Shown: positions 2,169 through 58,503 of the stretch, one piece after another | How positions within the stretch are numbered: the first letter of the stretch is position 1 | How the letters are laid out: each line of letters starts with the position of its first letter | Source of the DNA: an uncultured Candidatus Nemicrothrix sp. | GTDB lineage: Bacteria; Actinomycetota; Acidimicrobiia; Acidimicrobiales; UBA8592 | Direction: 5' to 3' | DNA: 64,000 bases | Assembly (NCBI GenBank): GCA_913046155.1 | Contig: CAJWRY010000001.1 | Coordinates: forward strand, 25,366-89,365 | Program-made: the position numbers and the translations under genes | The notes under the pieces: model-generated | What the model saw: only the letters and a program-made list of their open reading frames with translations | Database searches by the model: none | Told to the model about the DNA's origin: nothing

Positions 2169-2651
2169 ATGGCTCGCATTGATATTCCTGATGGAGAGGA
2201 ATTAGAGCGAATACGCCTCTGGGAAATGACTTCAGGTCTTTCAGACGCGATTAACAGTTTTCGAATTGCATCTCATGATAAGAGCCAACTTACTCGAAGG
2301 GTCAGAGAAGTAGCCCGAATGCGAATAGCTGTAATAAACCAATGCCCCATATGACTTGATACCAGAAGTGCGTCGGGAACGGACAAAAAGCTTTCTGAGT
2401 CAGAGTATTGTGAAATTATTAGCGGAGAGAAACCTATTTCCTTAAATAGGCAAGAATTGCTTGCCCTAAATTTTGCTGAAGACTTTTGCAATGATCCAAA
2501 TTCACTAAATGAAGACTTTTTTGTCGAACTAAGGTCGGAATTCTCGGATGCAGAAATAGTTGATTTGGCTGGCTATGTCGCTTTCTGTTTAGGCATTGGT
2601 CGAGTATATAAAGTCTTAGATATCGCAAATGAGTGCCCAGTAGTTCATTAG
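2169..2651 (+). CDS. AhpD/carboxymuconolactone decarboxylase-like selenoprotein (CxxU), 160 aa, Sec at TGA 2352-2354
   Basis: Track ORFs 2169..2354 and 2457..2651 are in one frame separated only by TGA; read-through gives REVARMRIAVINQCPI-U-LDTR...ELRSEFSDAEIVDL, a complete AhpD-like protein with U at the second Cys of CxxC. Confidence 0.85.
2364..2396 (+). promoter_or_regulatory. Candidate bacterial SECIS hairpin
   Basis: TCG-[GGAA]-CGG apical stem-loop 21 nt after the UGA, with imperfect lower stem AGAAG/CTTTCT; folded by eye. Confidence 0.45.
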
Positions 2652-2666
2652 TAAAGTCGCTTAATG

Positions 2667-4205
2667 CTAATTGAAGGTGCTTCTCAAGTTTCGTTTGAGT
2701 ATTTTTCCTGTCGGAGCCTTAGGAAGTTCTTTGACGAATTCAACATACTTAGGTTTCTGGTAGCTTGCTAGATTACTTTTCGCAGTCAGCATAATATCCT
2801 CTGGCGATAAGTCATAACCTGGCTTAGCCACAACGAATGCCTTGACTGATTCTCCCCACTCATCGTCGGGGATACCTATCACCGCAACTTCAAGCACACC
2901 TTGGTGTTTTGCTATCGCTTCCTCAACTTGAATTGAGTAGATATTCTCTCCCCCAGAAATAATCATATCCTTAGCCCGGTCAACGATATAGCAATAGCCA
3001 TCAGAGTCCCAAGTTGCGATATCACCTGTCCACATCCAGCCATTACGAATGGTCTGACTTGTTAGATCTGGTCTTCCAAAATATCCGATCATATTTGCTT
3101 TAGACTTCACGATGATTTCACCTGGAGTCTCATTATCTTGGGGCACTACGTTCCCATCAGCGTCTACTATTCGAATAGTTGTGACAAAGCCCTCTCTTCC
3201 ACAGGACCGAAGTCTTTCGGGGTGAAAGTTTTCGCGTATTGCGAGATTGTGATCTTCCTGACTGAGGAACGTCATTGTTGTCCCTTCAGTTTGCCCATAA
3301 CCTTGTATCAAACTGCAAGGGAATGCATCGAGTGCTTCCCGAATGACCCTGCTCGGCATAGGTCCACCTCCGTATTGAATATTCCTTAACGTACTCAGGT
3401 TAAAAGATTCAAAATTCGGAACCGCCATCATCCAGTTCAACATTGTGGTTACCCCCAAGAAAGCAGAAACCTTTTCCTTTTCGATCAAGTTAAGGGCTAA
3501 CGTTGCATCAAAATTCATCAATACAAGCGGACAGCCGTGAGCGTGATAATTCATTGCTAGAACGACAGGAATATGAAACATTTGACCTGTCAGCATGTAG
3601 ACGTCGGAAGGTACTATACGTTCAGCCACAGTCTGATTTTGCATTCCGTACCAAACGCTTTCATGAGAGTGAAGAGCACCTTTTGATTCTCCGGTTGTTC
3701 CACCTGTGTAGAGAATAAAAAATGGATCCTCAGCTTTGTGGTTTGATGTTGGTGAAGGATCAACCGATGACTGAGCTTGAACTAATGATTCAAATGATTG
3801 GTCCCCTGTTTCACCGTATTCAAACCATCTATCGACCAGATCGGTTTCTGCTTGTACTTGCTTACCTAATTCAGACAAATCGCTATCAACAATTACAATG
3901 CTTGGGTTTCCATTTTCAATAATTTTAATTACTTCACTGGAAGATAATCTCCAATTCATAGGCTGAGCTATTAACCCGATTCGTCCACAGGCATAGAAGA
4001 GTGCGAGATGCTCTATTGAATTTTTGCTTAGAATCCCGACTCGATCACCTTTCTGTAGCCCAATTGATATCAAACCATTTGCTATTTTGTTTACTAGGTC
4101 TTCCAGCTCCCTAAAGCTAATTCTCCGATTTCGCTGTTCGTCAATTACTGCTACCTTGTTGGGAGTTAAACGTGCCCATTTTTGTGGTATCAAACCAATG
4201 TTCAT
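2667..4205 (-). CDS. Long-chain acyl-CoA synthetase (AMP-binding)
   Basis: YTGGTTGESKG, GYGQTE, TGD, KDMIISGGENIYS, PKAPTGK. Confidence 0.93.
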   Translation of the reverse strand: MNIGLIPQKWARLTPNKVAVIDEQRNRRISFRELEDLVNKIANGLISIGLQKGDRVGILSKNSIEHLALFYACGRIGLIAQPMNWRLSSSEVIKIIENGNPSIVIVDSDLSELGKQVQAETDLVDRWFEYGETGDQSFESLVQAQSSVDPSPTSNHKAEDPFFILYTGGTTGESKGALHSHESVWYGMQNQTVAERIVPSDVYMLTGQMFHIPVVLAMNYHAHGCPLVLMNFDATLALNLIEKEKVSAFLGVTTMLNWMMAVPNFESFNLSTLRNIQYGGGPMPSRVIREALDAFPCSLIQGYGQTEGTTMTFLSQEDHNLAIRENFHPERLRSCGREGFVTTIRIVDADGNVVPQDNETPGEIIVKSKANMIGYFGRPDLTSQTIRNGWMWTGDIATWDSDGYCYIVDRAKDMIISGGENIYSIQVEEAIAKHQGVLEVAVIGIPDDEWGESVKAFVVAKPGYDLSPEDIMLTAKSNLASYQKPKYVEFVKELPKAPTGKILKRNLRSTFN

Positions 4206-4208
4206 TTT

Positions 4209-5039
4209 TTACAGACCGCGTTGTCCAGCTTCGCGAAGAAAAGGCATAGCATCTGAATGGGGAGGATCATTAGGGGTAGAGCCGGTAGTAAGCCCACCAT
4301 CTACTACTAGACAATGCCCATTCGTGTTCCCTGATTCATCCGATGCGAGGTAGAGGGCGGCATTGGCAACATCTAAGGGCATGCCTGGCCTATTGAGAAT
4401 TGGAGATTTCGCTTTCACTATTTCACTTACCTCTTCTATTGCTTCATGGTCATCGGTATAAGCTGCGGCTACTAATGGGGTAACAGTAGATCCAGGGGCA
4501 ATACAATTTACCCTTACCCCAGACCTGCATAATTCGGCAGCCACGTTCTTTGTTAATCCAACTACTCCATGTTTAGCAGCAGCGTAGACATGAGGGCCAA
4601 GGCCGCCAGTCACACCTGCTGTGCTAGCTACATTAATAATTGAGCCTGATTTTTGTTGCTCCATATACGGGGCTGCATGTTTAATTCCTAGAAATGTTCC
4701 ATAGAGAAGAATATCTAGAGTTGCTTTGAACTCTGATGCGTCTGTTGAAGAGATTGGCCCTCTAGACCCCACAATACCCGCATTATTCATCACGATGTCT
4801 AAGCTTCCGTACGTTGATACCGCAGCTTCCATCAGTTCCTCTACATCGGCCTCCTCAGTCACGTCGCAATACTTAAATATTGCTTTGTGTCCCATTTCTG
4901 AGGAAAGATCTTCACCAAGTTCCCTTTGGATATCTCCAATTATGACAAGCGCTCCTTCCTCGACAAATCTTTTGACGGTCGCCTTACCTATGCCAGATGC
5001 TGCCCCTGTTACGACGGCGACTTTTTCTTTCAGCCTCAT
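4209..5039 (-). CDS. SDR family oxidoreductase
   Basis: TGAASGIG, NNAG, YAAAK. Confidence 0.93.
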   Translation of the reverse strand: MRLKEKVAVVTGAASGIGKATVKRFVEEGALVIIGDIQRELGEDLSSEMGHKAIFKYCDVTEEADVEELMEAAVSTYGSLDIVMNNAGIVGSRGPISSTDASEFKATLDILLYGTFLGIKHAAPYMEQQKSGSIINVASTAGVTGGLGPHVYAAAKHGVVGLTKNVAAELCRSGVRVNCIAPGSTVTPLVAAAYTDDHEAIEEVSEIVKAKSPILNRPGMPLDVANAALYLASDESGNTNGHCLVVDGGLTTGSTPNDPPHSDAMPFLREAGQRGL

Positions 5040-6217
5040 GATTCCCCTTGCATTTCATTTTGTGGTTCGATCCGCCCCACTCTTTGCCATGCAAAAACAG
5101 CAGCAAATAGCAAAGCGGTGGTACCCAACCAAGAATACGCAAAGCTTTCTGTCCAGTCCACAACGAATCCGAATAAGGGGGGTGATGCTAGTGCCCCTAA
5201 GTAGTATCCGGTCATAGTAATCCCAGTAGCTCTACTGACTGAAAGCGGAGCTTTATCTACTATGCATGCATGCATTGTTCCGATAGCTGAGAGTTGCGTT
5301 GAGACGCCAATGATAGCGCCTATTATCACCAATTCAATACCTAGTGCGGGGCCAAGACTAACCAATAAGACTGCAATTGATGAAGAAAATAGCAGAGCCA
5401 TTAGCAACTTAATTCTACTTTTGGCACCTACTCTGTCAGCAAACAGGCCATTACATATCATGGCCAAGACTCCAGAGAAACAAGCTATGGAAGTTACTGC
5501 TCCAGCAAATCCTGAGCTTGCGTCAAGAGAATCCTCTAAATATGAGACGATCCATGAGTAAAGGGGCTGAGATCCAGCTATAAGCAGAAAAGAAGCTATC
5601 CCGAACCAGTAGAAGTTTGATGGAAGCGTCTTATCGTTAGTCTGCTCAACACTATCGGTTATCAGATTCGGAACGAAAAGAAGCGCAGAAATCCCTACAC
5701 AAAGAGCAACTGCACCATTAACCACCAGGATATGTTCCCATTTCCATTGGTCTGCAGACCATGGACCTATCGCTGCCGCTAATGCAGCCATGAGCGGTAC
5801 GCCCGACGTTTTCACAGACATTGCAAGAGTGCGCTTTTCTGCTCCGATTACTTTTCCGATCACAACATTTGTTCCAGTATTTGAAAGCCCGTATGCTGCC
5901 CCTGCTAGCACGCTGGATATAACCCAGATGCTATAAGTCCCTATTGCAGCGATTAGAAAAGAGCAAATTGCGACAATAACCATATCCATTACGATTGAAG
6001 TTCTTGGCCCTATTCGTTCGGTAATTTTCCCTGCAAGAATTGAACCCAAGCCTGTTGAGCCGAAGTAAATACCAACAATCAATCCTACTTTTCCTTTTGA
6101 AACAAGTAACTCTTGGCTCAGAACAGTAGCTAGGAAACCAGGGAAAAATCCCAAAGACGCCCCAATTCCGACAGCGCCAGCCGAAACGGCTACAACACTC
6201 TTTTCCTTAACCCTCAT
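5036..6217 (-). CDS. MFS transporter
   Basis: About 12 hydrophobic segments, GKITERIGPR motif A; ATGA overlap with the SDR. Confidence 0.88.
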   Translation of the reverse strand: MRVKEKSVVAVSAGAVGIGASLGFFPGFLATVLSQELLVSKGKVGLIVGIYFGSTGLGSILAGKITERIGPRTSIVMDMVIVAICSFLIAAIGTYSIWVISSVLAGAAYGLSNTGTNVVIGKVIGAEKRTLAMSVKTSGVPLMAALAAAIGPWSADQWKWEHILVVNGAVALCVGISALLFVPNLITDSVEQTNDKTLPSNFYWFGIASFLLIAGSQPLYSWIVSYLEDSLDASSGFAGAVTSIACFSGVLAMICNGLFADRVGAKSRIKLLMALLFSSSIAVLLVSLGPALGIELVIIGAIIGVSTQLSAIGTMHACIVDKAPLSVSRATGITMTGYYLGALASPPLFGFVVDWTESFAYSWLGTTALLFAAVFAWQRVGRIEPQNEMQGES

Positions 6218-6259
6218 GAACTTTTCTAGAGAACTTGGGCAAATAGATACTCGCCGAAT

Positions 6260-7888
6260 TCATCCACGTATCTCAGCAGCTATCTGCTCTCGAAGGCGAA
6301 TCTTTTGTATCTTAGTTGCGGACATTGGCCATTCCGTTACGAATCGCACGTAACGAGGTATTTTGAAACTTGATAGTTGCCCCTTGCAGAATTCAATTAT
6401 TTCATTTTCAGTTGAGGACATTCCTTCTTTAAGTTGAATGAATGCTGCGGGTACCTCAACATATTTATTATCGGGCGCCGAAACAACTTGAGCTAACTGA
6501 ATTGCAGGGTGATGTGAGAGAAAACCTTCAATTTCAACTGCGGCAACATTTTCACCGCCGACCTTGAGCATGTCCTTTATTCTTCCGTGGTAAGTGACTC
6601 TACCCTCTTCATCTAGTGAACATAGGTCCCCTGTCCTGAACCAACCGTCTTCTGTAAAGGCCTCCAGGTTCTTTTCAGGCGCATTATGGTATCCCTCAAA
6701 TACGCAATAGCCTTTTATTAGAATCTCGCCTTGTTCGTTAGCCCCCAGAATTTCGTCAGTTTCTGGATGTCGAATTTGAGCTTGAATACCCCGGAAAAGC
6801 TTTCCTGAAGTTTCAGTCCTTTTCTCAAGTGAATCCTCAACATGACCAAATGAAACTACTCCGCCACATTCAGTCAGTCCGTAAGCACTTATTTGTACAG
6901 TGTTAGGCATCCGTTCTTGCATTGAGACAAGAAGATCCGCAGGACCTACATTGTTGACGATTCGCATGTTGAGTGCATTCGGATCATAATCAACGTGGTT
7001 AAGCAGGGCTTCCATGATTGTAGGAAAACTGGCAAAATTTAATGTAGCTTTTTCAGATTTCATGTAGGAGAGAGCTAATTTGGGTTCAAAGTATTCCATA
7101 GTCAACAAAGCGGCTCCGGCATCAATACATGCTATGAGTGGCAAGACAAAACTCATATGAAACATAGGGAGAGGATCCCACATCCTATCCGTTTCTGTAA
7201 TCATGAAACGAGTTCTACCTGCCTCGACAGCCGGTCGAACCAATGCTTCATGTGTAATAGGGCATCCTTTGGGGTTTGCAGTAGTACCCGATGTATACAT
7301 CATCATTGCTATGTCACGAACTTGAAGACGTGAGCGGCTTATCTCAATTTCCTCCACTTCAATATTTTCGCTGAGAGTTTCGAATGTTTCTGTATCAAGC
7401 ATTCCTACCGGCATGCGCTCTCCGAACAAAATAATAGAATTTAAATTACGGGCTTCAGGTAGTTGAAGTTGCATTGGATCTGTTTGATTTTCTAAATTTG
7501 GAAATGCTTCCTGAAGTAGTTCCACAAAGTCCACATGTTCAACTATCCGGTCGGTTGTCGCAAGCACCTTTAAACCCGCGTCATCAATCACATAGGCAAG
7601 TTCCTTCGCTTTGTAGCGAGCGTTAATGGGAACCGGTATTGCCCCAATGAGTTGACTTCCAAGAAGTAGATCAACAAATTCGATACAATTTGACATCAAT
7701 ATTCCAACAGAGTCACCGTCATTGATTCCGATTGCCTTAAGTGACCTCGCAGCATTTGTAGCCCGCTCGTAGAGTTGTGCAAATGTAGTTTTTGATTCAG
7801 GAAACACCACTATGTCGGAATCAGGATGTTTATTAACTGCGCGTGCCAATAAATCTGGAAGAGTGTAGACATCAGAAACTGTTAACAA
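6260..7888 (-). CDS. Fatty acyl-CoA synthetase (AMP-binding)
   Basis: YTSGTTANPKG, YGLTE, RTGD, KDMLKVGGENV. Confidence 0.93.
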   Translation of the reverse strand: MLTVSDVYTLPDLLARAVNKHPDSDIVVFPESKTTFAQLYERATNAARSLKAIGINDGDSVGILMSNCIEFVDLLLGSQLIGAIPVPINARYKAKELAYVIDDAGLKVLATTDRIVEHVDFVELLQEAFPNLENQTDPMQLQLPEARNLNSIILFGERMPVGMLDTETFETLSENIEVEEIEISRSRLQVRDIAMMMYTSGTTANPKGCPITHEALVRPAVEAGRTRFMITETDRMWDPLPMFHMSFVLPLIACIDAGAALLTMEYFEPKLALSYMKSEKATLNFASFPTIMEALLNHVDYDPNALNMRIVNNVGPADLLVSMQERMPNTVQISAYGLTECGGVVSFGHVEDSLEKRTETSGKLFRGIQAQIRHPETDEILGANEQGEILIKGYCVFEGYHNAPEKNLEAFTEDGWFRTGDLCSLDEEGRVTYHGRIKDMLKVGGENVAAVEIEGFLSHHPAIQLAQVVSAPDNKYVEVPAAFIQLKEGMSSTENEIIEFCKGQLSSFKIPRYVRFVTEWPMSATKIQKIRLREQIAAEIRG

Positions 7889-7943
7889 TGGTCCCCCTTA
7901 GGAGTCGTCTTGATAGGATGCGAAAATACATTTGGAGATTCAC

Positions 7944-8282
7944 ATGTTGACACCTGAAGAGGTAGCCGAGAAACATCTTACCGCAGTCAAAGGCGGAGAC
8001 CCATTTCTAATGGCTGAAGACTATGCTCAAGATGCACTTTTGGTTAGAGGCGAAGATGTTTTCGCCGGAAAGGAAGAAATATTCAACTACTTTGCAGGAG
8101 TTCCTAACAGGATGGGTTCTGGAGTAATTAAATTTATGAAATTAGAAGTGGACGGAGCGAGTGTGAGCTTTTTTTGGGAAATCACTGATGACAAAAAAGT
8201 AGTTTCAGGAAAAGATGTAATGATTATTAAAAACGGTTTGATCCAACATCAGGAAGTGACTCTACTAACCGAGGATTTTTAG
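7944..8282 (+). CDS. SnoaL/NTF2-like protein
   Basis: DYAQDA...GKEEIFNYF...GKDVMIIKNGLI pattern; GGAG before ATG 7944. Confidence 0.75.
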   Translation: MLTPEEVAEKHLTAVKGGDPFLMAEDYAQDALLVRGEDVFAGKEEIFNYFAGVPNRMGSGVIKFMKLEVDGASVSFFWEITDDKKVVSGKDVMIIKNGLIQHQEVTLLTEDF

Positions 8283-9007: not shown

Positions 9008-9016
9008 GACTCTCCT

Positions 9017-11740: not shown

Positions 11741-11751
11741 ATTATTCGGCC

Positions 11752-26457: not shown

Positions 26458-26808
26458 TTAACGGATGAAATCTGCTATGCGGTCTTTAGGCCGACCGATT
26501 ATTGCCTTGTCCCCATTCACAATCACAGGCCTTTGTAATAATTGCTTATGCTTGACCAATATTTCCACTACATTTTGCGGATTATTTACGAAATCATCAG
26601 GATCTAATTCAAGTTTTTTGAATTTCGAATCTTTTCGTACGAGATCTTCTACAGGGTCCTCCAGTCCGGAGACAATTTTTTCGAGGGTAGCTTTGTCCGG
26701 TGGTTCTTTAATATACAGAACTACTTCATATTCAATTCCCTCATCCTCAGCGACCGCTAAGGCGTTTCGAGATGACCCTCAATGAGGGTTGTGATAAATC
26801 GTAATCAT
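26458..26808 (-). CDS. arsC: ArsC-family (glutaredoxin-type) arsenate reductase selenoprotein, 116 aa, Sec at TGA 26781-26779; absent from ORF track
   Basis: Manual translation MITIYHNPH-U-GSSRNAL...Y...PP...LVRK...LLQRPVI...IGRP; matches ArsC ITIYHNPACGTSRN with U at catalytic Cys12; GGAG 8 nt upstream of ATG. Confidence 0.88.
26741..26775 (-). promoter_or_regulatory. Candidate SECIS hairpin of arsC
   Basis: CCTTAGC-[GGTC]-GCTGAGG, loop 23 nt after UGA and starting with G; lower stem TCATC/GATGA. Confidence 0.65.
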
Positions 26809-28735: not shown

Positions 28736-29803
28736 CTACGTTCCTTTGATCCTATCTTTGACTGCTGTTGAGTTTTCTGCAGTTGTGAAGCGATCAGCGT
28801 GGGTTAGCCTTGCTAGTTCTACCGCAATTGTCACCCAGTCATCATCTACTCTGATACCAGAACAGTCGGCAGCTATATTAAGGCTTCGAAAAATGGAAAC
28901 GGTGATTGCTGCGTCTATCATCCCCTCGGTTCCAACTTCTTCACCGAGCTGTTTTCGGACTTCAGGAAGGTTTGATGTTTGTCGATTTGCCGATTCAGTA
29001 AATGCAATAAGCGATTCAGCATGCGGTACGCCAGATAGGGCTCCCGAACCGTTTATTGCATTACTTAGATCTAAATTTGAGTTAATTGCTTCGCTACTCG
29101 AACTGAGAAACATTGAGTGCGCACTTGTTCAATAAAAACATTCATTTATTGCGGAGGTTCTTGCCGCAACCAATTCAATTTGTTGACGAGATAAGCTTCT
29201 ATGTTCCCAAACCATTTCGCCAAAATTAGTTCCAGAATACATAGACCTCACAAGCAGCATCCGCCTCGCATTGTCAGCTTGAGCGAGACTTAACGAGACA
29301 GCAACATGAGGCAAACCCCTTGGTGAAAAGGTCGGCAGAAACGCGACATCATTAACTAAGTCTTCGGGTCTTTCCTTCGTTGGAGCACCGTCATGGGCAT
29401 TTGGCAACTTTTCTCTGGGGTAGCCGAGAATATCGGCGAGAGTAAAGACGGGAACTACTTGTGTGACGATTGCAGCAAGCTCCGCGTAGCGATCCTGACC
29501 TAGTACATCCACGATGCGGTCATAAGCGTCTCTATCTATAGTGGAAGACTCATATGTAATTTTACGAACAACCGCCCTTACATAAGGACTTAGACTCTCA
29601 GTTTCTTGATGAGAGTATTTAGATAAATCATTAACTCTTTCAACTAACGTGGGTTGACTGGAGTTTCGTACTTCTTGCGCAATCTGAATTCTTTGCTGGC
29701 CTGTCCACCAAGCACCAGGTTTTCCTAAGTTATGCCACACGATTTCAAAGCTTTGGATAACCTCATCGGGCACTATTGTCTTCAAAGGTAAGAACGGTGC
29801 CAT
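28736..29803 (-). CDS. Alkylhydroperoxidase (AhpD)-related selenoprotein, 355 aa, Sec at TGA 29131-29129
   Basis: Track ORFs 29129..29803 and 28736..29113 are in frame; read-through gives ELVAARTSAINECFY-U-TSAHSMFL, the full AhpD N-x-C-x-Y-C-x3-H motif with U. Confidence 0.87.
29087..29112 (-). promoter_or_regulatory. Weak candidate SECIS hairpin
   Basis: CTC-[AGTTC]-GAG, loop 24 nt after UGA with G at loop position 2; lower stem TGTTT/AAGCA. Confidence 0.3.
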
Positions 29804-35991: not shown

Positions 35992-37290
35992 CTATAGTTC
36001 TACGTTCAAATCCCAGCAGGTATGGATATCACCAAGATTGAGAGCAGTTAACTTTGGGTTTGTACCTTTTTGTAGTTTTAGGTCTGGATAGGAATTTAGA
36101 AGGAGTTCCGATGCGACCACAGCGCAGTCGCGAACGATCGCATACATTGACCTAGCTCGTTCCTTTGGGACAGCAGGGTGGATAGAAGGCTTACCAAGAG
36201 AGAATGCTATTCCTGAGGGCAACCCATCTGCCCTATATTGACCTCTTGGTTCTCGCTGGCATAAATCTTTCCTCCCGATAACAAATTTATTTGGTTCATT
36301 AAATTGCCTTGGGTCCCGATTTGCTGCTGCAGCGGAACACATCAATAGTCCACCCTGAGGGATTAAGCGGCCAAAGCGCTCAATTTCATATTTTGCAAAC
36401 CGTTCGGCCGATAAAACAGGTGGGCTAAACCTGAGAGTTTCTAACCATGCGAACTTAAGCATTCGTCGATCATCTAAAACTTTTTTCATCTCGCTTGGAT
36501 TAGTCATCAAATTAAACCACAGGCTTGATAGGCCACCTATAAGTGTGCCTTGATCGATATCAAGAAAGGTCAGAATCACATCCTGTGCTGTCACATCGCG
36601 ATTGAGATTTGCAGTTTGGAGGATGCTAGTTATCAGGTCATTCTGCGGCTTGAGTCGTCGAGCAAGGCAAACCTCACCCACCATAGTTTCCATTCCTTGC
36701 ATAGCTGCAATACCACGTTGTTTGTGGCTGGGGTTCCACCCATCTACAAGTCTTGATTGCCAATAGAGAGCCATGAATTGCTCTACATCCTCATCTGGAA
36801 TGCCTATTACTTTCCCGAACAGGCGAAGAGGAACTTGAGTACAGAATTCCGTTGCTAGGTTAATTTCTTTCTTATCAAACGAAGTTAGAACCTCATCAAC
36901 TACATCGGTTATATGGTTATCTACTAGGTTTTCATATTCTTGTTGGATTTCTTTTTCTTGCCAAAGACTCACAGAGTCGCTCTTCATCAGATTATGCCAA
37001 CTCTTAGGGCGGGTCTCAAAATTCCTGTCATCAGTAAATACAGATGTAACGTCATCATAACGAGTTATCCAAAATCGGTTATTTAACCAGTCCCGATAGC
37101 AAGGATAATTCTCACGGAGTATCTCAAGAAGAGGATACGGGTCCTCAAGGTATTCATTAGAAATCAGTTGACGAGGTTTTATAAGATTAGTTGTCTCACC
37201 GACTCTTTCGCGCTGGTAGACCTCGTAAGTTCTGTAACCTGGAGCTGCTTCTGGTTCCTCGTCATGGTTGTATTCCTCTGAAAGGTCCAT
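35992..37290 (-). CDS. Cytochrome P450-fold protein lacking the axial heme Cys
   Basis: DPYP...LR, ITRYDDV, DLI, ETLRFSPPV, AAANRDPRQF retained; heme loop reads FSLGKPSIHPAV and I-helix DIDQGTL; likely start 37290. Confidence 0.82.
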   Translation of the reverse strand: MDLSEEYNHDEEPEAAPGYRTYEVYQRERVGETTNLIKPRQLISNEYLEDPYPLLEILRENYPCYRDWLNNRFWITRYDDVTSVFTDDRNFETRPKSWHNLMKSDSVSLWQEKEIQQEYENLVDNHITDVVDEVLTSFDKKEINLATEFCTQVPLRLFGKVIGIPDEDVEQFMALYWQSRLVDGWNPSHKQRGIAAMQGMETMVGEVCLARRLKPQNDLITSILQTANLNRDVTAQDVILTFLDIDQGTLIGGLSSLWFNLMTNPSEMKKVLDDRRMLKFAWLETLRFSPPVLSAERFAKYEIERFGRLIPQGGLLMCSAAAANRDPRQFNEPNKFVIGRKDLCQREPRGQYRADGLPSGIAFSLGKPSIHPAVPKERARSMYAIVRDCAVVASELLLNSYPDLKLQKGTNPKLTALNLGDIHTCWDLNVEL

Positions 37291-37291
37291 A

Positions 37292-38737
37292 TCAGTTCGT
37301 GGGGATTTCAAAGTCAAGCCATAATTCTCGTATGGAGCCAAGCCCTATAGGGGCAAGAGAAACACCATCTATGTCTTTAGGCATACGCTCCTTATTGATA
37401 CGAACATTCCGAAATGCGGATTCGAGAATTTGCGAACCTATGACAGTTTCTTGATGAGAGATCCATGCTCCAGGACATAAGTGTGGGCCCACTCCAAAGG
37501 CCATATGACTGCACTTTCCTTCTTTGTTATAACCTGACCGCAAAATTTTACCCGAATATAGATCGTCACGGAAGATATTGAATTCCTCGGGATTCAAAAA
37601 TATTCTCTCGTCATGGTTTGCTGATACATCAACCATATGGATTAGGGATCCGGAAGGGATTGTGACTCCATGCATTACTATCTCATTAGTGTTGTGCCTT
37701 GGTTGGCCACCAATTGAGGTTGAATGCCTGAGCATTTCATGAAAAGCGGTATCCCAAAGTTCTTCGTTTCTTTGAACTGCTTGATACTGGTCCTTATGCT
37801 GGAGTAACAAATACCACAAATTCATTATTGCTCCTCGTGTAGTTTCTCCGCCTCCACCCACTACCAAAGCTATAAATGAAGTTATTTCTTCTGTAGACAT
37901 GACATCGCCGTCAATTTCAGAATTGCACAGCTCCGAAATGATATCCATGCATATCTCTTGACCTGACTCATCTTCCAAGTAGGTTGGGTTACCTCTCTTC
38001 TCTTCGACAAGATCTTCTACATAGTTTTCTAAGTCTTGCCGTGCCTCAAGTCCTTCGTGATGTGTCTCTGACCCACCTAGCCCAGACATCATAGCATCGT
38101 ACCACCAGGTAAATTGCTGCCTTGCATCTTGCGGTATCCCAAGCACCTCTGCAACGACACTGATAGGGAACTCGTTTGCAAAGGCTTTTCCTAATTCCAG
38201 CGTCGCTATCCCCCTCTCATTGTCAATAATGAGATCTTTAGGGTTATCTTGTGACCACCATTCTTGAATTAATTCCTGAGCGATTTCCTCAAGAGCGTGC
38301 AATCTCTTGGTGAGTGCTGCTCCAACTAAATGACGGCCGTATATGTTTCTTCGTCTGCGGTGTTCTATTCCACTCAATTCAAGTTGCGTATTACCCAATA
38401 CTCCACTTGATGAGCCTTTAGGGATCGTGTTAAAGCCTAATTCATCAAAATAAGAATTTGTTATGTCCTCGTATCGAGTAACAAAGTAGCAATTATGTAG
38501 TTCGTCGTGAAAAACCGGATAATGATCTCTCATTATTTTGTAGTAGGGATATGGGTTGCGCCCAAACTCTCCACTGTCAAATATGCGTGGATCAATGAGT
38601 GGTACTCCATTCTCGTCGAAGCCCATGTCAACTGCTTCCCCTACTGGCATATGTGGGAATTTTCTTTGAGCTGCCTCGTGGTTTTCTTCGAAATTCAAGA
38701 TTTCGTTCATTGCGTAATTTGTTGATTCTCTAGCCAT
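37292..38737 (-). CDS. Cytochrome P450 with long N-terminal extension
   Basis: GGGETT, HEMLR, HMAFGVGPHLCPG. Confidence 0.93.
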   Translation of the reverse strand: MARESTNYAMNEILNFEENHEAAQRKFPHMPVGEAVDMGFDENGVPLIDPRIFDSGEFGRNPYPYYKIMRDHYPVFHDELHNCYFVTRYEDITNSYFDELGFNTIPKGSSSGVLGNTQLELSGIEHRRRRNIYGRHLVGAALTKRLHALEEIAQELIQEWWSQDNPKDLIIDNERGIATLELGKAFANEFPISVVAEVLGIPQDARQQFTWWYDAMMSGLGGSETHHEGLEARQDLENYVEDLVEEKRGNPTYLEDESGQEICMDIISELCNSEIDGDVMSTEEITSFIALVVGGGGETTRGAIMNLWYLLLQHKDQYQAVQRNEELWDTAFHEMLRHSTSIGGQPRHNTNEIVMHGVTIPSGSLIHMVDVSANHDERIFLNPEEFNIFRDDLYSGKILRSGYNKEGKCSHMAFGVGPHLCPGAWISHQETVIGSQILESAFRNVRINKERMPKDIDGVSLAPIGLGSIRELWLDFEIPTN

Positions 38738-49385: not shown

Positions 49386-49795
49386 CTAGAAGAAATGCGA
49401 CTAGGGGTTCGTCCGCTGCTCAACCTATGAATACGACGGGCAGGAAAAAGCGACGTAGGAACAGAAATAGAGCAGACCCAAAAAAGTTTTGGGGAAACAA
49501 AGAGGCTCTTCCGTTGCCTGTTCATGATGTGGAAGTTCCGTCGACAACGCAAGCTGTTTTGGACTCTTTGGGGAAACCTCCTATACCGGGACAGGAAGTG
49601 CCCTCTTTGGAATATTTAGGCGAGATCTATAACCGTTCAGCAGGACTAGCGTTCGCGCTGGCTGCTGCCGGAGGACTTGATAAATCCCTTCCTGACGGCA
49701 TTGATCAAGAACTAGACCCTGTTAATACTATTAATGACGATGATCCCTATAATATTCTTCGACCTGAAGATGATATTGATGGGAATCGTATTTAA
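49382..49795 (+). CDS. Hypothetical protein coupled to SNF2
   Basis: ATGA overlap with GGAG RBS; basic N-terminus, FWG...SLG.PP.PG motif. Confidence 0.7.
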   Translation: MTRRNATRGSSAAQPMNTTGRKKRRRNRNRADPKKFWGNKEALPLPVHDVEVPSTTQAVLDSLGKPPIPGQEVPSLEYLGEIYNRSAGLAFALAAAGGLDKSLPDGIDQELDPVNTINDDDPYNILRPEDDIDGNRI

Positions 49796-50718: not shown

Positions 50719-50774
50719 TCTAAATATTTTAATCGGTGTACGTTAAGAGTGTTCTAAAGCTATCGTTCGTATTT

Positions 50775-51407: not shown

Positions 51408-52609
51408 TCCCATCTAACAGGCAATTTTGAGAACCCTTTGAGAACGCCTGCTGAAGTTTGTGTGGGAGGTCCATTAGCACGTATTTTCGGCAATCTTCTG
51501 GTTATCGCTGCTAGAGCAACCTTCCCTTCAAGGCGACTTAACGGAGCTCCAAGGCAATAATGCGATCCGACTCCAAATGAAGTGTGGTTACGAAGAGCTA
51601 TAGGGTCTCTATTTATATCAAATACATCCGGATTCTTCCAGAGGTTCGGATCTCTATTTGCAGAACCGAACATCATACAAACCTTAGAATCAACAGGTAC
51701 TGTAACTCCGTGAAAAGTAACTTCTTCTGTATTTGTTCTGAATAAGCCGTGTACTGGAGCATCAAATCGGAGACTTTCTTCAATTGCATTTGGAATTCGG
51801 TCAGGTTCTGATTTGAGGACTTCAAATTGCTCTGGGTATTCCATGAGTCGATGCAGAACGTTCCCTATCATGAGGGTTGTTGTTTCTGAACCGGCTACTA
51901 GAAGAAATTGGCAGAATCCAAGTATTTTCTTTGTTGAGAGGTTCTTGCCGTCATTAGTTACCGTAAGTAGTCGAGTTAATAAGTCTTCAGGGACGTCCTG
52001 CCCGGTAATCAGACGATCTTTTCTTTCTGCAATATGGTTGCCGAAATATTCGAAGAAGTCCTGATAGGCCGATTTTACTTCAGTGGACGCTTCTCGTCCT
52101 CCTGAGTATGCGACTGCCTCTGCCATTCGAAGTACCCAGCTTCGGAAAAGGCCGATGTCTTTTGTGGGAGTACCGAGCAACCAACACATAACAGTAAGAG
52201 GAATCGGAGCTGCGAACTCTTCAATGATGTTTCCCGACATGTTCTCCTCAAATTGATCGATGAGTTCGTCGGCTAAATCAACAATTTCTCTTTCCATCTT
52301 TTCAATAGTTGAGGCCTTAAATATTCTTGAGATCGCGATTCGTTCTTGTGTATGTTCTGGAGGGTCGCTTGAAACAAGCACTCCGGTTCCTGGCTCCGAA
52401 TACGCTAATCCTGGGCCAAATTTAGAAGACCATATTTTCTCATCTCGTAATGCTGCTGTTACGTCCTCTCCTCTTGTTAGCGTGTAATGGGCAGAAGGTT
52501 CGCTTGTGTGATGAACCGGACATTTATCTCTCAGTAAACTCATTACAGTTGTTGGATTATCTTGAAAATGCTGGTCAGCAAAACTGAATGTAATATCTTC
52601 TGAATTCAT
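51404..52609 (-). CDS. Cytochrome P450 (canonical)
   Basis: DPPEH, AGSETT, EESLR, FGVGSHYCLGAPLSRLE. Confidence 0.95.
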   Translation of the reverse strand: MNSEDITFSFADQHFQDNPTTVMSLLRDKCPVHHTSEPSAHYTLTRGEDVTAALRDEKIWSSKFGPGLAYSEPGTGVLVSSDPPEHTQERIAISRIFKASTIEKMEREIVDLADELIDQFEENMSGNIIEEFAAPIPLTVMCWLLGTPTKDIGLFRSWVLRMAEAVAYSGGREASTEVKSAYQDFFEYFGNHIAERKDRLITGQDVPEDLLTRLLTVTNDGKNLSTKKILGFCQFLLVAGSETTTLMIGNVLHRLMEYPEQFEVLKSEPDRIPNAIEESLRFDAPVHGLFRTNTEEVTFHGVTVPVDSKVCMMFGSANRDPNLWKNPDVFDINRDPIALRNHTSFGVGSHYCLGAPLSRLEGKVALAAITRRLPKIRANGPPTQTSAGVLKGFSKLPVRWD

Positions 52610-52615
52610 TTATTC

Positions 52616-54583
52616 CTAGAGTGACCGTATAAGGTTTGCTGCTTGATGGATTGCTGCTTGGATTCCATTTGTTCCTGATGCATCACCGATTGTGTGAATT
52701 GCCTGGTTTGATTGAAGAGATTGGTTTGTTAGGTAGTCTCCTAATTCTCTGTTGGGGTGATTATAGGTAACTAAAGCTACTGTGTTGGCTTGAAGCCTTC
52801 GTTTGCGTTCTGTGAATGGGACTCCAATCATAACTTCATCTTGAGTTATAGCTTGGATGTAGTGTCCTCCTATGAAGTCAAAATTTTGGGACATGAGCCG
52901 TTCTTTCGCTGCTTCAACGGTTGCAGGAGGGTACGGAAGTGAAGCACCGAGGCTCTCATATCTGCTGACGAGAGTTACTTGCATTCCGCGCTCAAGAAGA
53001 GCGTCTGCTACTGAAATTGCCTCAAATGTTCCAGTGTCATCAAAGATAACTGCGGGCCCTTCTGTATTTACTCTTCCGCCGAATCCCAGAACATCCCAAC
53101 TGCTGTAAACATGATTCAAATCAAATCCTTTTAAGGGAGCAATAGGTGTTGTTAACTGGAATCCATCTTTTCGAGGAGTAGAGCCGGTGGCTAGAATAAC
53201 CCGATCTGGAGATATCTCGGCGACCAAATCGGGATCAACTAGCGAATTTAATGTGACGTTCACTTTGAGTCGTTCCATTTCTGTTTCTAGCCATTTTGTG
53301 ATTGCTCCAAGGTCAGACCGATGTGGCGCAGTGGCAGCAATTGTTACTTGCCCTCCTAGTCGTTTGGTTGCTTCGTGAAGGTGCACGTCGTGACCTAGTA
53401 TTGCTGCTGTTCGGGCTGCTTCAAGTCCGGCAGGGCCGCCTCCGACAATGAGGATCTTCTCTATTGATTTTGGTTTTTCGGTTGGTTCGAATGTGACTTC
53501 TGTTTCATTTGCGGCAGCGATATTAACGACACATCCGAGTTTGCCTGTTGACATGATTTGCCCGACACAGCCAAAGTTTGATCCGATGCAGGGACGGATT
53601 AGGTCGGGGTTACCTTGTTTCGCCTTATTGACTAGTCCGGGGTCTGCGATGAGAGCACGAACCATAGAAACCATATCGGCCTGCCCTTCATTTATAATTG
53701 TGTCTGCTTGATCTAGTGTCATTATTCGCCCTACGACGATTGTTGGCTTCGTTAGTTGTCTTATTATCGGCTCGTTGGCAGGCATTTCGTGGCCGAGTGG
53801 GTCATCCATCGGAGAGAGCAGTTTATGGAATCGCCAATATGAACCCATGTGAAGTGAAATATAATCGACGTAGGGTTCAACTATTTTTGCTATTTCTGCA
53901 TTGTCTTCAGCTGTCAGTCCTCCCGGAATATATTCTTCGTTGGGCAGCCTTATCCCTACGCAGATATCGTTGCCAACCTCTTCTCGAATGGCGTGGATAA
54001 TCTCCATAAGGAATCGCATGCGGTTCTCTAGAGAACCTCCGTATTGGTCTGTGCGTATGTTATTAGCCGGCGATAGGAACTGTTCGATGAGGTATCCACT
54101 GGAGGCATGAATATCAACTCCATCTAAGCCCCCGTCTCTGCATCTACGGGCAGCAGCGGCGAATGAATGAACCATCTCTTCGATCATTGACCTAGTCATC
54201 TCTATCGGAATTCCCCCAGCGATAGGATTTGGGATGGGACTGGAAGATATCTGAGTTGTTCCTTTTCCTGGTGCTCGAGCAGATCCTGGATGGTATATTT
54301 GCTGAAGCATTTTCATACCGTGTGGTTTAAGGGCAGTGCTTAGCTCTTTGTAGAAATCGATAACTGCATCGTCATGTAGCGGGATAATGCTTCTCATAGC
54401 AGGTGAAGAAAGATGGACACTTGTTGCTTCAAGTGTGCTCATTCCTACTCCACCGACTGCACGTGCTTCATGGTATGCAATCAGTCGCTTGAGTGGTAAC
54501 GCTGTTGAATGAGCAGAACGAACGATTCTATTTGGAATAGTAAGTGGACCAACGTTGATTGGTTGGAATAACTGCTCGTACAT
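52616..54583 (-). CDS. NADH:flavin oxidoreductase (OYE barrel + Fe-S + FAD domain, FadH/BaiCD-like)
   Basis: NRIV, GYLIEQFLSP..N.RTDQYGGSLENR, CIGSNFGC...CVVN, GGGPAGLEAA; GGAGGGG RBS before ATG 54583. Confidence 0.9.
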   Translation of the reverse strand: MYEQLFQPINVGPLTIPNRIVRSAHSTALPLKRLIAYHEARAVGGVGMSTLEATSVHLSSPAMRSIIPLHDDAVIDFYKELSTALKPHGMKMLQQIYHPGSARAPGKGTTQISSSPIPNPIAGGIPIEMTRSMIEEMVHSFAAAARRCRDGGLDGVDIHASSGYLIEQFLSPANNIRTDQYGGSLENRMRFLMEIIHAIREEVGNDICVGIRLPNEEYIPGGLTAEDNAEIAKIVEPYVDYISLHMGSYWRFHKLLSPMDDPLGHEMPANEPIIRQLTKPTIVVGRIMTLDQADTIINEGQADMVSMVRALIADPGLVNKAKQGNPDLIRPCIGSNFGCVGQIMSTGKLGCVVNIAAANETEVTFEPTEKPKSIEKILIVGGGPAGLEAARTAAILGHDVHLHEATKRLGGQVTIAATAPHRSDLGAITKWLETEMERLKVNVTLNSLVDPDLVAEISPDRVILATGSTPRKDGFQLTTPIAPLKGFDLNHVYSSWDVLGFGGRVNTEGPAVIFDDTGTFEAISVADALLERGMQVTLVSRYESLGASLPYPPATVEAAKERLMSQNFDFIGGHYIQAITQDEVMIGVPFTERKRRLQANTVALVTYNHPNRELGDYLTNQSLQSNQAIHTIGDASGTNGIQAAIHQAANLIRSL

Positions 54584-54617
54584 GGCTTCCCCTCCAGCTA
54601 AGCACTGATAATAGTTT

Positions 54618-55739
54618 CTACCCTCGTGGCTCCCTGTCAAGTCCAAGCACTCGTTCGCCGAGAATGTTGCGCATGACGTTCGATGTCCCACCCATAATTG
54701 TGTAGGCGGGAGCGTAAGATAGGCCCTTGGTTAATTGACTATCAAGAAGGGCTTTAGGTCCAAGTACCCGGCTTACAAATTGGGCAACGTTCCATTCATG
54801 TTCGGTGCAGAAGCATTTCGTTGCTGCGCTGAAACCTGATGGGGCTTGTTGAAGAGTTTCACGGTATACGAGGAGTCTTCCTATGTGGTAGCCAGCTTCA
54901 AGTTTACTAATCTCTTGCCGATTTAAAGGATCTGATAGATTCGCACACTTTTTTGCTTCATCGTAAAGAGCTTTGTTGGATACGAGCCTGTCTATGCCAC
55001 CTCGCTCGTGTTCAAGCTGCTTCATCGTTTGTTTGAATGCTGCCCCTTCTTGCCCTACCAGATTCTCTACAGGCACTTCTACATCATTGAAATAGACTTC
55101 ACAAAAGTGCCTGTTCAGTGTCATATCCGTGATGGGCCTCACCTCTATTCCTGGCAGATCCATGGGAACGATTATTTCTGAGATTCCTCGGTGCGGCGGG
55201 CCTTCAGCGTTTGTCCGACAGATTAGGTAACAATAATCAGCTACGTCGCCAAAACTCGTCCAGATCTTTTGCCCATTTATTCGGAAGACATTGCCATCAT
55301 GTTCTGCTGATGTCGACAACGAGGCTAGATCGGATCCACTATCTGGTTCGCTCATGCCTATGCACCATGTTGTTTCTCCAGTGAGCATATGTGGAAGGTA
55401 TTCTGCTTTTTGATCGTCGGTGCCATAGCTAATAACTGTGGGACCCATTTGACGATCTGCGAACCACATTGCAGCTATGGGGGCCCCAGCAGCGATCATT
55501 TCCTCCGCTACAATGACGCGTTCAATCGCTGGACGTTCTTGCCCTCCGTGTTCTTTAGGCCATCCCATTCCGATCCAACCGTTTTCAGCCATAGTCTGCG
55601 CAAACTCTTTTGAAAATCCGTTGATCCAACTATCGTTAAATCGGCCGTGTTTTTCTACTCCTTTGCGTGCTACTTCACGGGCCTGCTCACGTAATTCTTG
55701 CTGTTCATTTGTGAACGTGAATTCAAGTGTGCTTGTCAT
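54618..55739 (-). CDS. Acyl-CoA dehydrogenase (FadE/ChsE-like)
   Basis: IGMSEPDSGSDL, GQKIWTS, LEHERG, TIMGGTS.VMRN. Confidence 0.92.
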   Translation of the reverse strand: MTSTLEFTFTNEQQELREQAREVARKGVEKHGRFNDSWINGFSKEFAQTMAENGWIGMGWPKEHGGQERPAIERVIVAEEMIAAGAPIAAMWFADRQMGPTVISYGTDDQKAEYLPHMLTGETTWCIGMSEPDSGSDLASLSTSAEHDGNVFRINGQKIWTSFGDVADYCYLICRTNAEGPPHRGISEIIVPMDLPGIEVRPITDMTLNRHFCEVYFNDVEVPVENLVGQEGAAFKQTMKQLEHERGGIDRLVSNKALYDEAKKCANLSDPLNRQEISKLEAGYHIGRLLVYRETLQQAPSGFSAATKCFCTEHEWNVAQFVSRVLGPKALLDSQLTKGLSYAPAYTIMGGTSNVMRNILGERVLGLDREPRG

Positions 55740-55753
55740 CTGGTTAAGTCTTG

Positions 55754-56236
55754 TTAACGTAGTTCGTTGACTTTGGTGAGGATTTCTTGAGCGTGTTCTT
55801 TTGTCTTTGGTTTTGTAAACACGTGTACGATCTTTCCTTTCGGGTCGATGAGGAAAGTTGTTCGGTGAAGCCCCATATACGTTTTCCCATAGTTTTTCTT
55901 TTCTCCCCAGACGCCGTACTTACCTATAATTTTGTGATCGGTGTCGGCTATTAGAGGGAAGGATAGGTTGTATTTTGTTGCGAATTTTTCATGACTCGTA
56001 TTAGCGTCTGGGGAAATTCCTATGACCTGAATATCGTGTTTTTTGAGGTTGCCTAGATTATCTTGAAGGTTGCAGGCTTGATTTGTGCAACCTGGCGTGT
56101 TGTCCTTTGGGTAAAAGTAGACTGCTGTGTATTCTCCAAGAAAGTCTGACAGTTTAATTTTATCGCCGGTGAAAGTGACGGATTGAAAGGCGGGTGCTTT
56201 CTTTCCGACAGGTAAAGGTTGTGCTTGTGTATTCAT
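55754..56236 (-). CDS. bcp: Thioredoxin-dependent peroxiredoxin BCP (Cys form)
   Basis: YFYPKDNTPGCTNQAC, GISPD, RTTFLID. Confidence 0.94.
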   Translation of the reverse strand: MNTQAQPLPVGKKAPAFQSVTFTGDKIKLSDFLGEYTAVYFYPKDNTPGCTNQACNLQDNLGNLKKHDIQVIGISPDANTSHEKFATKYNLSFPLIADTDHKIIGKYGVWGEKKNYGKTYMGLHRTTFLIDPKGKIVHVFTKPKTKEHAQEILTKVNELR

Positions 56237-56277
56237 AAATTCCTTTGGTTAATACCCACTCTAGCACTTCGCCTTTT

Positions 56278-56868
56278 TTAGCTAGAAATCATCTGACTAG
56301 TCGCAAGTTTTTCGCCCATATCAGCTACAAGTACATTAATTATGTAGTCCATGCTGTCTTTGGTTGAGATGGGAAGTGTTAGTTGCCCGTTCTGATGCAG
56401 TGCTGAATACCCCGAAATAGCCGAGAGCACAAGTCTGCCCCAATGGATAATCACCAACTCATCAATGCCAGCATCATGAAGTATCTTGTGCATCGGGTAA
56501 TTAACGTCTTCGATGGCTTCTAGAATTTGAGCGTCGGTACCTGGTGGATAAATTGACGCCGAAAATTCAGCTGGGTGCGTGAGAGCGAAGTCGAATTGTG
56601 CATGAAGAACTGATCGCACAGCATCAATACCGGCGACACCCATAGCTGCTTGGCTTAAGCGCTGGGCAAGTTTTTGTAAGCTTCGTAACGCAATCTCTCG
56701 CTCAAGTCCTTTTGCGCCGTCCACATGAGCGTAGAGTGATTGCACTCGAATGCCTAAACGTGCGGCAACAGCTGTCATTGTCACTGCTTGCACATTCTGC
56801 GTCTCTCCGAGTAATTCATAGGCGGTGTCTATAACATCAGTTTTTGAAATTCCGATACGGGCAGCCAT
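56278..56868 (-). CDS. TetR/AcrR family regulator
   Basis: VTMTAVAARLGIRVQSLYAHV HTH; AGAGG RBS before ATG 56868. Confidence 0.9.
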   Translation of the reverse strand: MAARIGISKTDVIDTAYELLGETQNVQAVTMTAVAARLGIRVQSLYAHVDGAKGLEREIALRSLQKLAQRLSQAAMGVAGIDAVRSVLHAQFDFALTHPAEFSASIYPPGTDAQILEAIEDVNYPMHKILHDAGIDELVIIHWGRLVLSAISGYSALHQNGQLTLPISTKDSMDYIINVLVADMGEKLATSQMISS

Positions 56869-56895
56869 TTTTCCTCTATTCAGGTTGCTATTCGT

Positions 56896-56934
56896 GTCTA
56901 AATATATCAGACTTATATCTAATGTCATTAGATA
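56896..56934. promoter_or_regulatory. Tandem putative TetR operators TCTAA-N5-TYAGA
   Basis: GTCTAA-ATATA-TCAGAC (56896-56912) and perfect 9-bp inverted repeat TATCTAATG-T-CATTAGATA (56916-56934), cores 21 bp apart, between tetR and the divergent operon. Confidence 0.7.
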
Positions 56935-57968
56935 CGCCTCAAATCTTTAAAATACCTGATAGTTCCGAAAGAGAACTGCAAGACCTATTCCTTGAAAAGG
57001 GTTGGGGTGATGGACTTCCGATGGTCGCCCCTACACGTGATCGCGTTGAAGAAATGCTAAGTGCATCAAAAGATCTTGATCCGGATGAAGTCATTGCGTC
57101 ACTTCCGCCTCGTGACGGCATAGCAACCAGACGAATCATTGCAGTAAATGCTGTTATGGCTGGCTGCAAGCCCGAGCACTTCCCTGTCCTTGTTTCAGCT
57201 ATTCGTGCACTGAGTGCGCCAGAGATTAACCTGCGGGGCGTGAACGCAACCACGCATTGCGTTGCGCCATTACTCATTGTGCATGGCAAAGCCGCTAGGG
57301 ATGGGGATTACAATAGCGGTCTGGGGGCGTTCGGACCAGGAAATCTCGCCAACGCAACCACTGGTAGAGCCGTACGCTTAATTCTCCATCATGTCGCAGG
57401 AGCCACACCAGGTACCGGCGATGCCTCCACACAGGGAAGCCCAGCTAAATATTCCTATTGCGTAGCCGAAAATCTTGATTCATCTCCATGGGGTGGTTAT
57501 GCAAGAAGTGTCGGCATTAACGATGAATCTGCTGTGACGATCCATTGTGGAGAGGCTCCGCACAATGTGCATGATATGGAATCATCAGAGCCCTCAGCCA
57601 TCCTTGACAAAGTGGCGTCAACGATGACGTCATGGGGGCAAAATAACGCACCGATAAGCCAAGGCGAATACTTTATCGCTCTCTGCCCAGAACACGCCTC
57701 AACATGCTCTTCACATGGATGGAGCAGATCCGATATAGCGTCTTACTTATTCAACAAAGCTACGGTGAACGTCGGAGAAGCTCGAAAAGCGTTTGAATTA
57801 CGAGCATGGGCGCCATGGCAACATGCACTTGAAGATACCGACACCATTTCAATGACGGAGAAACCAGAGAATATCAAAATCTTTGTAACCGGTGGGGCTG
57901 GCAAACACAGTTGCATTATCCCTAGCTGGGGCATGACCAAAAGTGTGACCGTCCCGATATTACCCTGA
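56922..57968 (+). CDS. Conserved hypothetical protein, partner of the UGSC (seleno)protein
   Basis: GWGDGLP.VAPT..RV..ML, IAVNAVMAGC.P, GPGN.ANAT.GRA.RL, C.AEN...SPW, GGAG.HS; start ATG 56922 avoids overlap with tetR. Confidence 0.75.
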   Translation: MSLDTPQIFKIPDSSERELQDLFLEKGWGDGLPMVAPTRDRVEEMLSASKDLDPDEVIASLPPRDGIATRRIIAVNAVMAGCKPEHFPVLVSAIRALSAPEINLRGVNATTHCVAPLLIVHGKAARDGDYNSGLGAFGPGNLANATTGRAVRLILHHVAGATPGTGDASTQGSPAKYSYCVAENLDSSPWGGYARSVGINDESAVTIHCGEAPHNVHDMESSEPSAILDKVASTMTSWGQNNAPISQGEYFIALCPEHASTCSSHGWSRSDIASYLFNKATVNVGEARKAFELRAWAPWQHALEDTDTISMTEKPENIKIFVTGGAGKHSCIIPSWGMTKSVTVPILP

Positions 57969-57975
57969 AGGAGAA

Positions 57976-58503
57976 ATGATGGAAATTTATGCACCTACTG
58001 GAAACACAGGAGAGCCACAAAGATCTCTCGCTGCCCCTATCCCAGTATTGAATGGGTTGTCGCTGGGAATTCTTGATAACACGAAACCCAACGCAAGAGT
58101 CCTACTTGATCGGCTTGCTGAACGACTCACGGAACGCGTTGGTCTCACATTAGCGAAAGCAGAAGTCAAAAACGCCGCTCTAGCTGCCCCTGATCAGGTT
58201 CTGGAGTCCCTCTCAAAGGAGGTGCAAGTTGTCTTGACGGCTTCAGCCGATTGAGGGAGTTGTACCTCATGGAGTGTCCATGATGCTGTTCAACTTGAGA
58301 AATCAGGAATACCCACAGTGGTAATTACAACTGAGAGTTTCAGGAAGCTTACCGAACAGGTTGCGGCATCATTGGGTCATGCCGATCTTCGAATCCTTTC
58401 GGTTGGTCACCCGTTGGGTGGCACGAGTGAAGAAATTGTGCGTCAATGGGCAGATGACGCTGTTGAAGAAACCATTAATCTGCTGACTGGAGAACGAATA
58501 TGA
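57976..58503 (+). CDS. UGSC-family selenoprotein (UxxC), 175 aa, Sec at TGA 58252-58254
   Basis: Track ORFs 57976..58254 and 58318..58503 are in frame; read-through VLTASAD-U-GSCTSWSVHDAVQLEKSGIPTVVI...HPLGG; ends in ATGA overlap with next gene. Confidence 0.92.
58258..58295 (+). promoter_or_regulatory. SECIS-like hairpin of the UGSC gene
   Basis: Perfect TCATGGA-[GTG]-TCCATGA (58267-58283), loop 19 nt after UGA and starting with G; lower stem AGTTG/CAACT. Confidence 0.72.

Follow-up and report, generated by a model that had tools for sequence, protein, structure and literature searches.

Four genes in a 64,000-nucleotide stretch of DNA from an uncultured Candidatus Nemicrothrix sp. of the order Acidimicrobiales (assembly GCA_913046155.1, contig CAJWRY010000001.1, positions 25,366 to 89,365, forward strand; this whole stretch is called the window below) each carry a single in-frame TGA at a catalytic cysteine position. 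These TGAs are almost certainly (probability about 0.97) selenocysteine (Sec, U) codons read by the standard bacterial decoding system, and the products would be redox enzymes in which Sec replaces the attacking cysteine. An earlier note, made from the sequence of the window alone, had proposed that such codons complete four broken or missed open reading frames (ORFs). The TGAs indeed start exactly at 2352 (+), 26781 (-), 29131 (-) and 58252 (+), in the contexts that it gave; read-through yields four complete frames and each product scores as a single domain across the TGA. The genes and their predicted selenocysteine insertion sequences (SECIS, numbered from the TGA) are the following:

2169..2651, + strand: AhpD/CMD-like CxxU selenoprotein gene (CPIU), 160 aa, U62, TGA 2352-2354; preceded by a Liv-type ABC transporter ATPase gene
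2368..2384, + strand: SECIS of the CPIU gene, +14 to +30; two mismatches in this copy
26458..26808, - strand: ArsC-family (R773/glutaredoxin-type) selenoprotein gene, 116 aa, UxxS, U10, TGA 26781-26779
26745..26762, - strand: SECIS of the ArsC gene, +17 to +34; loop GGUC
28736..29803, - strand: AhpD-related CFYUT selenoprotein gene (CFYU; NF041238), 355 aa, U225, TGA 29131-29129; flanked by an acyl-CoA dehydrogenase and a P450 gene
29093..29111, - strand: SECIS of the CFYU gene, +18 to +36; loop AGUUC
57976..58503, + strand: UGSC-family selenoprotein gene (NF041046, PF24696), 175 aa, UxxC, U93, TGA 58252-58254
58267..58283, + strand: SECIS of the UGSC gene, +13 to +29

The codon is conserved in each gene. 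A comparison of distinct homologous sequences aligned at the TGA position, which the earlier note had suggested, finds 26 TGA and 3 cysteine codons for CPIU (a tally that includes a CHIU paralogue family), 21 TGA and 6 cysteine for ArsC, 23 TGA, no cysteine and 1 serine for CFYU, and 33 TGA and 1 cysteine for UGSC; TAA, TAG and TGG do not occur in this column among the homologues of the four genes. Full-length UGSC homologues from databases have cysteine at the Sec position in 94/106 cases, and the Sec of CFYU matches the cysteine of distant AhpD proteins only. Curated NCBIfam cut-offs are passed by three of the four read-through products, two of the models being named '(seleno)protein': UGSC scores 142.5 with NF041046 (cut-off 125) and also passes PF24696, CFYU scores 248.6 with NF041238 (cut-off 175) and also matches PF02627, and ArsC scores 107.6 with TIGR00014 (cut-off 106.05). 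The CPIU protein matches PF02627 (29.8 vs 23) and stays under all NCBIfam subfamily cut-offs. Together with the stem covariation described below, these data bear out the recoding and the family assignments. The term 'hidden selenoproteome' used in the note is apt insofar as plain gene callers miss these genes; the families themselves are known, from the curated models and from close reads in the 2008 Global Ocean Sampling (GOS) set.

Hairpins, decoding machinery and rival explanations

In the bacterial SECIS model, the loop lies 16-37 nt downstream of the TGA and has a G in its first two positions (PMC13188914). The conserved loops of the four genes begin at +20, +24, +25 and +19/20 and have a G at position 1 or 2, in agreement with this model. 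The CPIU stem is 90% paired over 25 TGA homologues vs 33% over 3 cysteine homologues, and the ArsC stem is 96.6% paired vs 52% in its cysteine homologues. The CFYU stem is 93.7% paired, its closing pair being C-G in 12 sequences and U-A in 6. The UGSC stem is 94% paired over 33 homologues, with A-U/G-C and G-C/C-G exchanges between paralogue families. When the four stems are slid out of their fixed register, pairing falls to 9-62%. The compensatory changes in CFYU and ArsC sit at synonymous positions. Hairpin position, loop G and covariation thus fit the bacterial SECIS model.

The search for decoding genes, another check proposed in the note, gave a divided answer. A SelB with a SECIS-binding wing domain is encoded at C50:3-1541, where it is cut by the contig start. 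The near-complete relatives G002 and G007 (94% complete) carry selA, selB, selC (tRNA-Sec) and selD, and selB is the only one of the four found here. Among the genus genomes, selA is present in 20/22; selD, itself encoding a selenoprotein, in 5/5 of those examined; and a tRNA with anticodon UCA, which scores as tRNA-Sec, in 4/5. The decoding thus most likely takes the standard bacterial route: SelD provides selenophosphate, SelA charges tRNA-Sec(UCA), and SelB, bound to the hairpin with its loop G some 20 nt past the TGA, delivers Sec.

Several observations weigh against these TGAs being Sec codons or against the enzyme roles given to their products. No selA, selD or tRNA-Sec was found in this 67.5%-complete assembly. 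In G002, selB directly follows selA, and the tRNA-Sec gene is located another 11.5 kb upstream; with SelB at the edge of C50, this layout implies that both genes fall in a gap of the assembly. None of the hairpins is more stable than its shuffles (z +0.95, -0.86, -0.61 and -1.38), and the lowest-energy fold of the CFYU region differs from the conserved stem. A crude test for a hairpin with a loop G is a weak filter: in this genome, 38/171 true TGA stops and 136/600 cysteine codons satisfy it too, a background of 22-23%, and so do 9/15 cysteine homologues. Two-sided changes, a point in favour of the stems, occur in 8 alignment cells of the ArsC stem and 7 of the CFYU stem, numbers that 0/500 shuffles reach in either case; these tallies count sequences rather than events and are inflated, the sequences being kin. 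Lastly, the CPIU protein has an arginine in place of the AhpD histidine, and the ArsC gene, between coaE and an inositol-monophosphatase-family gene, lies outside any ars operon. Stability was accordingly dropped as SECIS evidence: single hairpins being unremarkable, the support comes from conservation and covariation across homologues. The SECIS-like hairpins of the note therefore stand by placement, loop G and conserved pairing, not by single-sequence stability.

Three other explanations were considered. The TGAs could be premature stops of pseudogenes or assembly errors, as the missing selA, selD and selC might suggest; this is vanishingly improbable, since 21-33 homologues per gene, taken from independent assemblies and down to 27-54% identical, share the TGA at the catalytic column, are conserved over their full length before and after it, and in no case have TAA or TAG there. 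The genes could also be split, their halves being made separately: in CFYU, a 125-aa ORF begins with an in-frame ATG (29113) located five codons past the TGA. Such a break would cut the CxxC motif, the cysteine homologues are single chains, this ATG lies inside the conserved motif-plus-stem region, and the three other genes have no such restart, so that this possibility is extremely slight.

Finally, UGA might be reassigned genome-wide to tryptophan or glycine, or be read as cysteine by a suppressor, which would give full-length proteins without selenium. Under selenium shortage, cysteine can be incorporated wrongly at Sec codons. UGA-to-Trp reassignment occurs in one actinomycete family, Eggerthellaceae (PMC13462651). 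In this genome, TGA is still an ordinary stop that terminates 171/632 long ORFs, and in-frame TGAs are found only at cysteine columns; in the genus, the UCA tRNA scores as tRNA-Sec and is accompanied by selA, selB and selD. A change of code is therefore very unlikely, and decoding as Sec is retained in what follows.

Selenoprotein content of the genome and its relatives

The window lies on contig C1 of a 1.41 Mb assembly with 44.6% G+C. Its SelB is 89-56% identical to those of marine Acidimicrobiales metagenome genomes (e.g. SAT1582, SAT136, MCMED-G02, SP142). Near-complete relatives have genomes of 2.1-2.2 Mb, and a heme-copper oxidase, found in 8/8 relatives, points to a genus that respires oxygen. 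A scan of all TGAs of the genome by coding score and hairpin, as the note had advised, adds six selenoprotein genes, which brings the total to 10:

L236-L241, outside the window: C8:17300+, C100:1182+, C4:24429+, C81:4237-, C13:15020+, C56:905-; families: two AhpD-like CxxU, Rv2466c-like UxxC, ResA-like UGC, PrdB-like UxxC, Rdx/SelW CxxU

Each of these six genes has a redox-family match and a TGA kept in relatives. The hairpin filter helped to select them, which makes the passing of 10/10 genes partly circular, and the scan would miss a Sec near a C-terminus. The other TGA candidates were rejected: they proved to be neighbouring genes that share a frame, or non-coding upstream sequence. One observation from the scan concerns C21:14365 (minus strand), where a 66-aa ferredoxin and its reductase share one frame with one TGA between them; a SECIS is lacking and 91 codons pass without an ATG, which probably reflects a rare CTG start rather than read-through. 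The Rv2466c-like UPWC protein, considered as a new family, belongs to the known 'DsbA 2' DxxUP family. No Sec form was found of formate dehydrogenase, thioredoxins or molybdopterin enzymes, and no molybdopterin-domain match contains a TGA.

Adding paralogues and families absent here, at least 16 selenoproteins are found in G007 and at least 15 in G002, about 7 per Mb, these counts being lower bounds from the families searched. The genome thus exceeds the six genes from which an organism is called selenoprotein-rich (PMC5029168). The note had drawn the same conclusion from four genes in 64 kb; the richness holds, and the density overstates it about 9-fold, 0.45 genes being expected at the genome mean (Poisson P about 0.001, calculated by hand, or about 0.03 over 22 windows), so that the count of the window should not be extrapolated. 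Its genes belong to a segment that is conserved among relatives: the PrdB-like, UGSC, CFYU and ArsC genes occur in the same order within 65 kb in G002:C26 and G007:C2, which indicates a conserved selenoprotein-dense segment and not an operon. The host is therefore an aerobic marine member of the Acidimicrobiales of about 2.1 Mb with at least 15 selenoproteins, several of them encoded in one conserved segment of catabolic genes. A coupled P450 pair is also present in the window (35992-38737).

The note's remark that Sec use is usually limited in the phylum does not extend to this order. Other families of the order have a strong selA in 9/16 genomes, selB is found in at least 32/151 genomes of the order (a lower bound, from a strict threshold), and Sec use is reported for Actinomarina.

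Replacement of Sec by cysteine can be seen within the genus. BCP-type peroxiredoxin orthologues have Sec in some species and cysteine in others (L349:5799-6161 of G007 vs L333:1501-1863 of G002), a split due to recent switching. The UGSC paralogue L124 (G015:C91) has TGT where its orthologues have TGA and retains the stem, which is likely a recent Sec-to-Cys change.

Predicted functions of the selenoproteins

The enzyme functions considered here are predictions, which rest on sequence families and, for UGSC, on structure models. In both AhpD-like proteins of the window, Sec occupies the second cysteine position of CxxC, which is the attacking residue in AhpD. AhpD proper has a histidine four residues after this cysteine; CFYU keeps it, and the arginine found in the CPIU protein is shared with two of its cysteine homologues, which makes it a subfamily trait and not an adaptation to Sec. 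Both proteins probably act as reductases of hydroperoxides or disulfides, by way of a selenenyl-sulfide formed with the cysteine three residues upstream, and the neighbouring P450 and acyl-CoA dehydrogenase genes fit such a cycle on peroxides or disulfides.

The ArsC gene has an AAGGAG 8 nt before its ATG at 26808. As in R773/E. coli ArsC (TIGR00014), the catalytic His-x3-Cys-x2-Ser loop and the arginine triad align; unlike in that enzyme, Sec takes the place of Cys12 and no ars operon is present. The chances that the protein reduces arsenate appear about even. Glutaredoxin (PF00462) was found in 0/5 genomes and mycoredoxin-1 (TIGR02200) in 0/9, with these models and in incomplete genomes. MshC, mycothione-reductase-like and Mca/MshB motifs are present in the genome, and its Rv2466c-like protein, of a mycothiol-dependent family, is a selenoprotein. 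This protein is therefore the likeliest reductant, and ArsC would be recycled by mycothiol and the Rv2466c-like selenoprotein instead of glutaredoxin. Two separate MshC-like (mycothiol ligase) genes were recognized by motif at contig ends of C4 and C9.

The UGSC gene lies in the following setting, conserved in the genus:

56278..56928, - strand: TetR-family regulator gene, divergent from the UGSC operon
56922..57968, + strand: UGSC partner gene, 348 aa, directly upstream of UGSC
58500-59315, + strand: SDR gene, downstream of UGSC
59305-59550, + strand: gene of a NifU-like protein (weak match), downstream of UGSC
59559-61133, + strand: sulfatase gene, downstream of UGSC

A cysteine-type thioredoxin-dependent peroxidase (BCP) gene at 55754-56236 adjoins the TetR gene, a placement that is kept in the genus.

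The 348-aa partner matches no Pfam or NCBIfam family and has at least 5846 database relatives. It is encoded directly upstream of UGSC in 29/30 loci, which span three paralogue families and extend to other families within the order, it also flanks UGSC in cysteine-form operons, and natural fusions of the two exist (proteins P0227 and P0228). In one Acidimicrobiia genome (L376:2294-6537), two divergent UGSC-plus-partner pairs with opposite gene orders surround an IclR gene. The complex was modelled on a natural cysteine-form pair from another Acidimicrobiia genome, with its own alignments. It scored 0.84 vs 0.00 for the best control, a mark reached by 58/80 solved pairs and 2/110 mismatched pairs. 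The runs share at least 71% of contacts, the predicted local distance difference test (pLDDT) of the partner is at least 86, and the confident interface is formed by UGSC residues 1-12, including the invariant Pro7. The model supports a predicted binding and is no proof of it; with the gene neighbourhood, it makes a two-protein complex of UGSC and partner very probable.

In the UGSC model (pLDDT 88.8), strand and helix alternate in five units, and UxxC lies where the helix that follows strand 3 begins. The model matches flavodoxin-like/Rossmann-like folds; these fold matches are generic, with many ties and Z values no higher than 11. For the partner, fold searches yielded nothing clear (E 8e-4 and TM 0.26 for the best Foldseek hit, Z 5.6 for the best VIA hit), which is not proof of a new fold, and no solved structure matched by sequence. 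UGSC is most likely a small, flavodoxin-like, Sec-bearing subunit of a two-protein oxidoreductase, and its mode of action would be that of the UxxC subunit in PrdB/GrdB reductases. The likeness to these is a weak resemblance only: UGSC scores 16.5 with TIGR01917, far under the cut-off of 602 that defines the family (E 0.003), and hhalign with the PrdB-like protein of the genome gives E 0.016 and a probability of 2.9%. A broader and rather doubtful proposal is that UGSC and partner constitute an undescribed two-subunit selenoenzyme that would reductively cleave or activate a catabolic substrate like proline/glycine reductase B, within a mycothiol-coupled selenium redox network; the genus would also be a main source of several orphan ocean selenoprotein families, at a density per megabase near that of selenoprotein-rich anaerobes and without a Sec formate dehydrogenase. 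The fixed partner, the predicted interface and the natural cysteine-form operons make the function of UGSC directly testable.

Comparison with known selenoproteomes

No published selenium report was found for this genus, most subscription journals lying outside the search. The closest precedent is the GOS marine selenoproteome (Zhang and Gladyshev 2008, PMC2398784); its reads were unassigned, and Actinobacteria are not named in the main text. This set includes AhpD-like 1 and 2, ArsC 1 (UxxS), UGSC, PrdB, SelW-like, Prx, Prx-like UGC, DsbA 2 and SelD, as in this genus, and the study ranks the families with the most abundant selenoproteins of the sea; its Dataset S1 holds 7 and 15 occurrences of the genus motifs NPHUGSS and DPIUPWC, respectively, and a read 123/126 identical (by eye) to the C81 protein of this genome. 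Unlike in that set, the families are placed here together in one genus with the machinery. Reads that had no host in the 2008 catalogue can now be given one. The finding bears on the consumers of selenium in seawater; it also corrects the annotation of selenoprotein genes that are otherwise truncated or missed. By abundance, UGSC ranks in the top five of marine selenoprotein families; a thioredoxin fold was guessed for it and a fusion to an 'Unknown_1' domain was noted (PMC2398784). This domain may be the 348-aa partner; in contrast to the earlier guess, the model obtained here is flavodoxin-like, and the family now has a fixed partner gene and a modelled complex.

Actinomarina (bioRxiv 10.64898/2026.04.03.716425) is likewise a small-genome aerobic marine member of the Acidimicrobiia with selA/B/C/D and a Sec-type SelD. 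It belongs to a sister order and has about 5 selenoproteins in 1.1 Mb, most of them without a name, vs at least 15-16 per 2.1-2.2 Mb here. Reviews describe selenoproteins as rarely retained in aerobic bacteria (PMC13188914). With at least 15 of them genus-wide, the streamlined aerobe described here is, beside Actinomarina, a clear counter-example.

Selenoprotein-rich organisms are mostly anaerobes (78.3%; PMC5029168) and rely on FdhA, HdrA and Frh, with record counts of 56-63 selenoproteins (PMC13326102). The genus resembles such anaerobes (Desulfobacterota, Clostridia, Synergistota) in having six or more selenoproteins, at about 7 per Mb, and differs from them in being aerobic and in having no TGA in its molybdopterin-domain matches. 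All the enzyme families described here were already catalogued; what is new is that an aerobic host lineage is named and that evidence is provided for the partner of UGSC.

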